Source of the DNA: Escherichia coli
Lineage (GTDB): Bacteria; Pseudomonadota; Gammaproteobacteria; Enterobacterales; Enterobacteriaceae
Assembly: GCF_003018235.1 (NCBI RefSeq)
Contig: NZ_CP027438.1
DNA: 64,000 nt
Direction: 5' to 3' (one strand)
This document shows, piece after piece, positions 37,149-37,724 of the stretch (its first letter is position 1; every line of letters begins with the position of its first letter). A model generated the notes under the pieces. The model ran no database searches. It saw nothing but the letters and a program-made list of their open reading frames with translations, and was not told the DNA's origin. Both the position numbers and the translations under genes were made by a program.

Positions 37149-37724
37149 TCAACCTACAATAAATTTCCCTTCAGTTACACTATAGTGATATGCCCCATCA
37201 CGAGTACTGTTTTTAATTGACTCAAGTGCATTCTTAGCTGTTGTTGCGTCTGAAGAATAAATATTCTTAGAGTCCTGTTCCATTATATAGCTATAAAATT
37301 TATGAGTATCCGGATCCTTTAAATCATCTGCCGTTACCGCCCCATATTCAGGGCTTCCGCCAAGAGCCTCAAACTTATGTTCTAACGGATTGTAATAAAC
37401 ACGCCCATCATTCTGTAATGTATGAATGCAGTCCTCTCGCTCGCTATCAGATACTTTGTCACTCCCTGTGTGTGTCTGCAACTCATGCATATAGCTATTA
37501 GCGATATCAGCGTCTATATGGAGTATATCTCCATCCGTTGTATATTTAGAGACTGCGGTTCCATCTTTATGTTCAAATGCCCCCAGAGCCTCAGCTAAAG
37601 ATACAGCACCTTCTGAAGCATGAGTTGCTTCAACCATGCCCTCTATGATGGTCTCAAGAGCCTCGCCCAAACCAACGCCACCACCATAAATACAATTACA
37701 TTCATTAAACGTTAATTTTCTCAT
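37149..37724 (-). CDS. Acidic 191-aa protein with a class II microcin-type double-glycine leader (putative exporter cargo)
   Basis: N-terminus MRKLTFNECNCIYGG matches the colicin V leader pattern (MRTLTLNELDSVSGG) at -15, -14, -12, -9, -8, -4, -2, -1; mature part about 176 aa, D/E-rich, not Gly-rich or hydrophobic. Confidence 0.6.
   Translation of the reverse strand: MRKLTFNECNCIYGGGVGLGEALETIIEGMVEATHASEGAVSLAEALGAFEHKDGTAVSKYTTDGDILHIDADIANSYMHELQTHTGSDKVSDSEREDCIHTLQNDGRVYYNPLEHKFEALGGSPEYGAVTADDLKDPDTHKFYSYIMEQDSKNIYSSDATTAKNALESIKNSTRDGAYHYSVTEGKFIVG

Follow-up and report, generated by a model that had tools for sequence, protein, structure and literature searches.

The 64,000-nucleotide stretch of DNA analyzed here (the window) comes from contig NZ_CP027438.1 of an Escherichia coli assembly (GCF_003018235.1), and the host replicon is an IncF plasmid, on which genes of the bundle-forming-pilus type are also found. 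On the minus strand of the window, an open reading frame (ORF) of 191 residues begins with a double-glycine-type leader, MRKLTFNECNCIYGG. Its predicted product, referred to as the cargo, is followed by a HlyD-type membrane-fusion (adaptor) protein and an ABC transporter of the peptidase-containing kind (PCAT) with a C39 peptidase domain. The cargo, adaptor and PCAT ORFs are all intact and lie in that order on the same strand. This three-gene cassette is AT-rich and mobile, and is found on plasmids and islands. Its GC content is 32-40%, compared with 50-57% in the flanks, and it is bordered by the hok/IncFII-repA region on one side and by IS3 remnants, finO and tra genes on the other.

The reverse complement of the 45 leader bases reads ATG AGA AAA TTA ACG TTT AAT GAA TGT AAT TGT ATT TAT GGT GGT and supplies the 15 N-terminal codons of the ORF. 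Counting back from Gly15 as position -1, the leader has Leu4 at -12, Glu8 at -8, Cys9 at -7, Cys11 at -5, Ile12 at -4, and Gly14 and Gly15 at -2 and -1, with both cysteines encoded by TGT. An earlier note on this DNA had described a leader that keeps the consensus hydrophobic and acidic positions and the Gly-Gly site while carrying Cys at -7 and -5, and the translation confirms each of these residues. The leader agrees with the published pattern, Leu(-12)-x3-Glu(-8)-Leu(-7) with Val/Ile(-4) and Gly-Gly, everywhere but at -7 (PMC6363468; PMC8277102), and Cys-7 is a true departure from the Leu(-12)-x3-Glu(-8)-Leu(-7) consensus (PMC6363468), as the same note had proposed.

Several lines of evidence indicate that the leader and its start codon are genuine. 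The pattern M[RK]x[LI]x3[ED]x3[IVL]xG[GAS] was scanned over candidate N-termini in all six frames of the whole window. It matches one of 1,438 N-termini and none in 30 shuffles, and the leader is therefore more than a chance resemblance; the sole match stands directly upstream of the adaptor and C39-peptidase transporter genes. The ATG is a credible start because an AGGA Shine-Dalgarno sequence is placed 8 nt before it, the N-terminal block is conserved, and M30, the next in-frame Met, is not. Met1 and the entire 15-residue block are kept in homologues down to ~36% identity, and the N-terminal 16 residues are kept to 36% identity although the nucleotides diverge. Translation from a downstream start, named in the earlier note as a result that would overturn the leader, is very improbable. 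A sigma-70-like promoter candidate lies farther upstream, in a region where the number of such sites is not above the shuffled expectation. Coordinates are collected in Table 1.

Table 1. Features of the cassette in the window, and family leaders with other residues at the cut site
Feature	Coordinates	Strand	Description or evidence
Sigma-70-like promoter candidate, TTGGAA-16-TACAAT	37819..37846	minus	Consensus match only; ~95 nt upstream of ATG
Shine-Dalgarno sequence, AGGA	37733..37736	minus	Upstream sequence, 8 nt before ATG
Precursor ORF, 191 aa, 20.8 kDa	37149..37724	minus	"Hypothetical protein" WP_106907004.1 in plasmid NZ_CP076711.1, gene copy 100% identical
Double-glycine-type leader, MRKLTFNECNCIYGG	37680..37724	minus	Translation; sole motif match in window; family leader comparison
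Predicted mature cargo, 176 aa	37152..37679	minus	19.1 kDa (19,099 Da), pI 4.6, ProtParam
Cargo-adaptor gap, ~435 bp, 32% GC	36714..37148	minus	AT-rich; no ORF >25 aa
HlyD-type membrane-fusion (adaptor) protein, 408 aa	35487..36713	minus	Pfam HlyD_3, HlyD_D23, Biotin_lipoyl_2
Peptidase-containing ABC transporter (PCAT), 714 aa	33346..35490	minus	C39, ABC_membrane, ABC_tran domains
C39 peptidase domain, PCAT residues 15-138	35077..35448	minus	Gln19, Cys25, His98, Asp114 intact
Family leaders with Gly-Cys, Gly-Tyr or Gly-Asn	L003 8001-8048; L017 8001-8048; L015 2628-2675; L020 6799-6846		Family loci

The export genes resemble those of known type I systems. The likely start of the adaptor is the ATG at 36713; its ORF can be extended to a TTG at 36770, and homologues have 404-406 residues. 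The adaptor matches TIGR01843 below cutoff, and like the PCAT it stays below the cutoffs of all NCBIfam equivalogs. Identity of the PCAT is 31-32% with CvaB/MchF but ~25% with HlyB-type exporters (EhxB), and its Pfam Peptidase_C39 match stands at 2.5e-26. In an alignment of the C39 domain with those of LahT150 (6mpz), ComA and PCAT1, Cys25, His98 and Asp114 fall on Cys27, His101 and Asp117 of LahT, residues with described roles (PMC6363468), and Gln19 likewise takes a catalytic position. Comparison with four homologous PCATs, those of Klebsiella, E. coli, Salmonella and Yersinia, shows all four residues to be invariant; this set leaves out the Salmonella branch with canonical leaders.

By analogy with LahT150, ComA and PCAT1, leader residues -4 to about -12 would form a short helix, through which Leu-12, Cys-7 and Ile-4 would dock in a hydrophobic groove on the C39 domain of the transporter encoded two genes downstream. 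Gly14-Gly15 would lie extended in the active site, Cys25 and His98 would cut after Gly15, the predicted cleavage point, and the 176-residue acidic product would be exported via the PCAT together with the HlyD-type adaptor and a TolC-type channel encoded on the chromosome. Taken as a whole, this ordinary mechanism of docking, cleavage after Gly15 and export through a PCAT/adaptor/TolC-type channel is the probable one, and with it the 45 bases probably encode a working double-glycine secretion leader.

The cargo itself is less familiar. The predicted mature protein is acidic, begins with GVGLGEAL, ends with TEGKFIVG and contains a single, non-conserved Cys. In an AlphaFold model, the first ~44-45 mature residues, a conserved Gly/Ala/Glu-rich stretch, are of low confidence, and residues 45-176 (pLDDT mostly 70-90) are modeled as two helix-helix-beta-hairpin units. 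An internal duplication of this ~55-residue unit covers cargo residues ~60-191 (window 37152-37550), and hhalign of the two halves gives a probability of 97% (E = 1.7e-11). The duplication is visible by eye in the Salmonella branch, where the two copies are far more alike, which suggests that the ancestor had a tandem repeat and that His and Asp positions in it were conserved; the cargo family as a whole keeps several His and Asp residues.

No match to the cargo or any family member was found in Pfam or NCBIfam, a PDB profile search with the cargo gave no match, and a fold search gave no structural neighbour. According to the model, then, the cargo is an internally duplicated folded domain without known relatives outside its family. 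The family is labelled "hypothetical protein" in the annotated records examined, and searches of the available literature library for the protein accessions and for large double-glycine cargoes found no description of it. A Pfam KTSC match in a single family member (E = 0.23) was dismissed as chance. A zinc metallopeptidase was considered from the segment HELQTH (HExxxH) and is unlikely because the motif is not conserved as such: its first His is Ser in two homologues (P0029 and P0030), and its Glu is Asp or Asn in other family members. A HasA-like haemophore or metal-binding function, considered from conserved His and Tyr residues, finds support in neither sequence nor fold and is speculation only.

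The family is small, and its members mostly travel with their export genes. The exact cassette occurs in 2 of 72,556 PLSDB plasmids. The cargo is found by tblastn in 198 of these plasmids (144 from Salmonella, 39 from Escherichia, mostly E. albertii, and 15 from Klebsiella) and by blastn in 49 of 5,426 complete E. coli genomes. Searching 1.84 billion cluster representatives exhaustively with HMMER returned eight proteins, all family members or fragments, and a broadened profile added only further Enterobacterales and one protein from Mergibacter (Pasteurellaceae). Cargo, adaptor and C39 PCAT occur together in nearly all loci examined, on E. coli chromosomes and plasmids, on Klebsiella and E. 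albertii plasmids, and in Yersinia and Salmonella. Among the loci examined, those of E. coli, E. albertii, Klebsiella and Yersinia and one from Salmonella keep this three-gene order; on the IncFIB megaplasmids of Salmonella Infantis, the cargo gene points away from the adaptor and PCAT genes in a divergent arrangement.

Twenty-three distinct leaders from this family were compared. Leu-12, Gly-2 and a Gly at +1 are present in every one. Position -8 is Glu in 17, Asp in five and Gln in one, and position -4 is Ile in 21 and Val in two. Position -7 is Cys in 17 leaders, Leu in two, and Met, Ile, Tyr or Arg in one each. Position -5 takes ten different residues and is Cys in 3 of the 23. Position -1 is Cys in nine, Gly in eight, Ala in three, and Ser, Tyr or Asn in one each. 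Both TGT and TGC encode Cys-7 across the family, and the residue is therefore maintained at the protein level. The Tyr arises by a TGT to TAT change in a 99%-identical plasmid copy on NZ_AP027831.1, and Leu, Met or Ile is found in the Salmonella branch, where the leaders are fully canonical (for example, MKKLTSMELDLIAGS). Microcin-type leaders taken directly from plasmids (MccV, MRTLTLNELDSVSGG; MccL-type, MREITLNEMNNVSGA; MccN-like, MRELDNKELYFVGGA) have L, M and L, respectively, at -7 and S, N and F at -5. For a Cys at -5 of the microcin N leader, a literature search found nothing, and the closest plasmid homologue is the MccN-like leader just given.

Structural work on LahT150 helps to interpret these positions. 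Its Leu-7 pocket is hydrophobic, and changing Leu-7 to Lys or Asp is strongly damaging; only charged substitutions at Leu-7 were shown to be so, and the acidic residues Glu-5 and Glu-8 are dispensable (PMC6363468). Cys-7 is hydrophobic but smaller than the Leu or other large hydrophobic residue that normally occupies this docking position. On the Kyte-Doolittle scale, Cys is more hydrophobic than Met, the -7 residue of the MccL-type leader. Cys-7 is a family trait and appears to be a conservative and lineage-fixed stand-in for the consensus Leu, and the leader appears to have co-diverged with its own transporter, since the two main clades share only ~35% identity in this domain (C39). Cys-5 is uninformative: it would be a neutral residue at a solvent-facing, freely varying position, and it carries no signal because -5 is hypervariable both in the family and in known leaders.

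Both cysteines look like tolerated variation, with neither needed for special chemistry. The earlier note had set the two side by side as departures from microcin leaders. Cys-7 is indeed unusual in that comparison, but the two are not equivalent, given their frequencies in the family. Nothing supports the regulatory role it had raised, nor a redox role, as the leader is cytoplasmic and discarded and L, M, I, Y or R can stand in for Cys-7. In their -7 pocket, C39 peptidases would thus tolerate Cys and, in relatives, Tyr or Arg, while -5 is free. A Cys in a double-glycine leader is by itself a minor variant, and the cysteines in themselves are of little importance.

The variation at the cut site is a more unusual feature of these leaders than the cysteines, and one that the earlier note had overlooked. 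Sister lineages carry Gly-Cys (9 of the 23), Gly-Tyr or Gly-Asn at -2/-1 instead of Gly-Gly/Ala/Ser. One clade-2 cassette with a Gly-Cys site spans 1103734-1107720 of NZ_CP010229.1. Either their C39 domains accept a wider range of P1 residues or the scissile bond differs in these lineages. The sites may represent a natural relaxation of the "double-glycine" rule.

Several points weigh against the proposed docking, cleavage and export. Cleavage and secretion are predictions for every family member. The mature cargo is ~2.7 times as long as CtA, the 66-residue mature cargo of PCAT1 (PMC8277102), and the cargo range described for cleaved-leader type I systems is <10 kDa (PMC10231218; PMC8277102); because 19.1 kDa is well above that range, export of this cargo by a PCAT is an extrapolation. 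The Arg at -7, found in a Yersinia homologue, conflicts with a strictly hydrophobic pocket, and the retention of Cys-7 in 17 of 23 leaders could mean a specific requirement rather than tolerance. Finally, Cys, Tyr or Asn at -1 in sister lineages means that the scissile bond in the family is not secure. An alternative is that the N-terminus directs the protein to the PCAT yet is not processed after Gly15, with cleavage at another bond or with the peptide retained as with HlyB-type C39-like domains. Eleven of the 23 leaders have C, Y or N as residue 15, between an invariant Gly14 and Gly16, Tyr or Asn at P1 is beyond the G/A/S range reported for these proteases (PMC6363468; PMC12219008), and the cargo is large for a cleaved-leader system (PMC10231218). 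This outcome is nonetheless unlikely, as the clade-1 and clade-2 PCATs compared retain Gln, Cys, His and Asp at the catalytic positions, whereas C39-like domains lack the Cys (PMC6363468). Moreover, Leu, Glu and Ile reach -12, -8 and -4 only in register with Gly14 at -2, and the site in the window is a canonical Gly-Gly. Even less probable is a dedicated chemical or regulatory role for the leader cysteines, whether a transient disulfide or thioester-type contact with a C39 Cys (Cys25, or the conserved Cys29/Cys90) or redox-gated export in which oxidised leaders go unprocessed. Such a role would account for the persistence of Cys-7, with two codons, over E. coli, Klebsiella, E. albertii and even Mergibacter, for a second Cys at -1 in clade-2 leaders, and for two additional invariant Cys, C29 and C90, in the C39 domains. 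However, with the remaining system intact, Cys-7 is swapped for Tyr in the 99%-identical copy, for Arg in Yersinia and, in the Salmonella branch, for Leu, Met or Ile; Cys-5 is confined to its three leaders, the leader works in the reducing cytoplasm, and the Cys of the PCI.HW motif is also present in LahT150, whose substrates carry Leu-7. It is very improbable indeed that the leader is irrelevant because the ORF starts downstream of the ATG at 37724 or because the cassette is a decaying remnant. The adaptor is annotated as two coding sequences in NZ_CP076711.1, IS1 lies within the adaptor gene of a Klebsiella plasmid, and in one Salmonella lineage intact transporter genes are absent beside the cargo gene. 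In the window, by contrast, the three ORFs are intact and the Shine-Dalgarno sequence is correctly spaced, and the conservation of the 16 N-terminal residues despite nucleotide divergence, with no such conservation of the next Met, speaks against a later start. Docking of the leader, cleavage after Gly15 and export therefore remain the preferred account.

What the cargo does is a separate question. The name "microcin", used in the earlier note, is not supported, as the mature protein, at 19.1 kDa, is a folded domain of no known family and lacks a conserved immunity gene. Class II microcins are ~5-10 kDa, and published screens limited precursors to 150 aa (PMC12219008; PMC10233263). The locus shares with them the double-glycine leader and the dedicated PCAT and adaptor genes, and differs in size and in the adjacent immunity gene. 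In the MccV locus, the cvi immunity gene overlaps cvaC, and in the MccL-type locus, cvi is ~220 bp from the bacteriocin gene. In clade-2 cassettes, only 38-50 bp separate the cargo stop from the adaptor start. The clade-1 gaps are 435-600 bp (530-600 bp in Klebsiella and E. albertii) and, in the three clade-1 loci compared, are unalignable and hold no common ORF; small ORFs in the gap of the window do not exceed 25 aa. An all-vs-all BLAST of the 2 kb upstream of the cargo found only ~350 bp common within clade 2, plus insertion sequence (IS) remnants. E. coli and Salmonella loci contain two neighbours of 239 aa that are not related to each other, and no Pfam domain was found in other neighbours. 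The missing immunity gene weakens a bacteriocin reading of this family.

It is possible, if doubtful, that the cargo is a class II microcin-like bacteriocin of unusual size that kills plasmid-free competitors, with immunity unneeded or encoded elsewhere. The gene order, the leader and the TolC-less cassette are as in microcin systems, the nearest named PCAT relatives are CvaB and MchF, and the 191-aa precursor matches the published microcin leader regular expression but exceeds the 150-aa screen limit (PMC12219008). Bacteroidetocins show that double-glycine bacteriocins can be without immunity genes (PMC10233263), and colicin or cloacin genes also occur on the window and on related Klebsiella plasmids. 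On the other hand, no ORF is conserved beside the cargo in any lineage, either in the short clade-2 gap, in the unconserved clade-1 gap or in the ≤~350 bp of upstream conservation, whereas the MccV and MccL-type loci each keep cvi next to their bacteriocin gene. In addition, the mature protein is a 19-kDa, acidic, soluble protein with conserved folded repeats rather than a Gly/Ala-rich membrane-active peptide, and cassettes are often beside adhesin or autotransporter loci on virulence plasmids. A tentative alternative is that the cargo is a non-bactericidal secreted effector, such as a surface or colonisation factor or, given its conserved His and Asp residues, a metal-binding protein. It would then belong to an unrecognised class of PCAT cargo that is ~19 kDa, acidic, internally duplicated, without a known fold relative and without an immunity partner. 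As part of the same tentative proposal, cleavage of its leaders would follow a relaxed motif, Gly-X, in which -1 can be Cys, Tyr or Asn and -7 is Cys. If true, cleaved-leader type I secretion would have a wider cargo size range and broader recognition rules than assumed.

The surroundings of the cassette have been surveyed in several hosts. It is carried on adhesin-rich virulence plasmids or islands of enteropathogenic (EPEC)-type E. coli, E. albertii, Klebsiella and Yersinia and on Salmonella Infantis megaplasmids. K88-like and other chaperone-usher fimbriae, AfaD/usher genes and SPATE autotransporters lie within a few kb of cassettes (family loci L003 1-1490, L007 1-543, L017 1-6075 and L020 11724-14334), and the bundle-forming-pilus-type (type IV pilus) genes of the window occupy 204-9735. 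This neighbourhood could be compatible with a colonisation-related secreted factor or could equally reflect mere co-location on virulence plasmids. The window holds a second, unrelated export system at 16669-20362, composed of an FtsX-type permease (16669-17796), a TolC-like OEP protein (17793-19004), an unannotated 282-aa ORF and an ABC ATPase (19724-20362). We take its layout to be reminiscent of the Aat dispersin/CexE exporter of enteroaggregative and enterotoxigenic E. coli.

Signs of rearrangement are also found in and around the cassette. The adaptor gene is present as two coding sequences in NZ_CP076711.1 (L001 8488-9767), a plasmid otherwise 99.8% identical, and is split by IS1 in the Klebsiella plasmid (L008 9108-11104). 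These copies show that the cassette is prone to decay, although the adaptor gene of the window is intact. IS3-family transposase remnants and an ISEc31-like element (window 38213-38518 and 40370-41583) flank the cassette on the tra/finO side, and ~380 bp of this region are 90% identical to an IS remnant upstream of the chromosomal clade-2 cassette of E. coli S10. A colicin Ia/Ib-like gene on the minus strand of the window is divided between two ORFs: the receptor-binding domain (Colicin_Ia) is in the ORF at 27263-28306 and the pore-forming domain in that at 26427-27248. The gene is probably frameshifted or truncated.

Comparison with known systems places the cassette between several of them. 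Microcin V (CvaC with CvaA/CvaB/TolC) and the MccL and MccN types have the same 15-residue leader, M-R-x-L-x3-E-hydrophobic-x2-[IV]-x-G-[GA], and are likewise plasmid-borne, with adaptor and C39 PCAT genes by the cargo gene and no outer-membrane gene. They differ in having Leu or Met at -7 where Cys is found here, and they are Gly/Ala-rich peptides rather than an acidic folded repeat domain. Mature MccV has ~88 aa, compared with 176 aa for this cargo. MccV and MccL-type loci also keep cvi beside a bacteriocin gene that lies on the opposite strand to the export genes, whereas here the cargo and exporter are co-directional and no immunity gene is adjacent. The bacteroidetocins are similar in combining a double-glycine motif with the lack of a dedicated immunity protein (PMC10233263). 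However, they are small peptides from Bacteroidetes with no sequence relationship to this family, and their antibacterial activity has been demonstrated, whereas that of the present cargo is hypothetical.

Among cases where leader recognition by C39 domains is structurally defined, LahT150 with the ProcA/LahA leaders and PCAT1 with CtA are the closest parallels, as the catalytic residues align and the leaders share the -12/-7/-4 spacing for docking in the groove (PMC6363468; PMC8277102). Their substrates have Leu-7 and G, A or S at -1, whereas this family has mostly Cys-7 and its sister clades have Cys, Tyr or Asn at -1. The HlyA/HlyB (RTX) system is similar in pairing a HlyD-family adaptor with an ABC transporter that has an N-terminal C39-fold domain, and in exporting cargoes larger than microcins. 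Yet the C39-like domain of HlyB lacks the catalytic Cys and its substrate has an uncleaved C-terminal signal, while here Cys25 is present and the signal is N-terminal. An RTX/HlyA-type substrate was ruled out because the cargo has no RTX repeats and the transporter has the catalytic Cys25.

What appears to be new is a PCAT/double-glycine cassette with an atypically large, uncharacterised and immunity-less cargo and with a relaxed cut-site motif in its relatives. Microcin screens limited by motif or size (precursors ≤150 aa; a G[GAS] cut site) cannot detect this family, although it bears all the hallmarks of PCAT-dependent export and resides on plasmids from enteric bacteria of clinical relevance. 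The natural Gly-Cys, Gly-Tyr and Gly-Asn sites would be useful for engineered leader-cleaving secretion tags. Should secretion of the 19-kDa protein be confirmed, cleaved-leader type I systems would handle larger cargoes than described. The role of a conserved, unannotated secreted protein of gut pathogens would then be directly testable.

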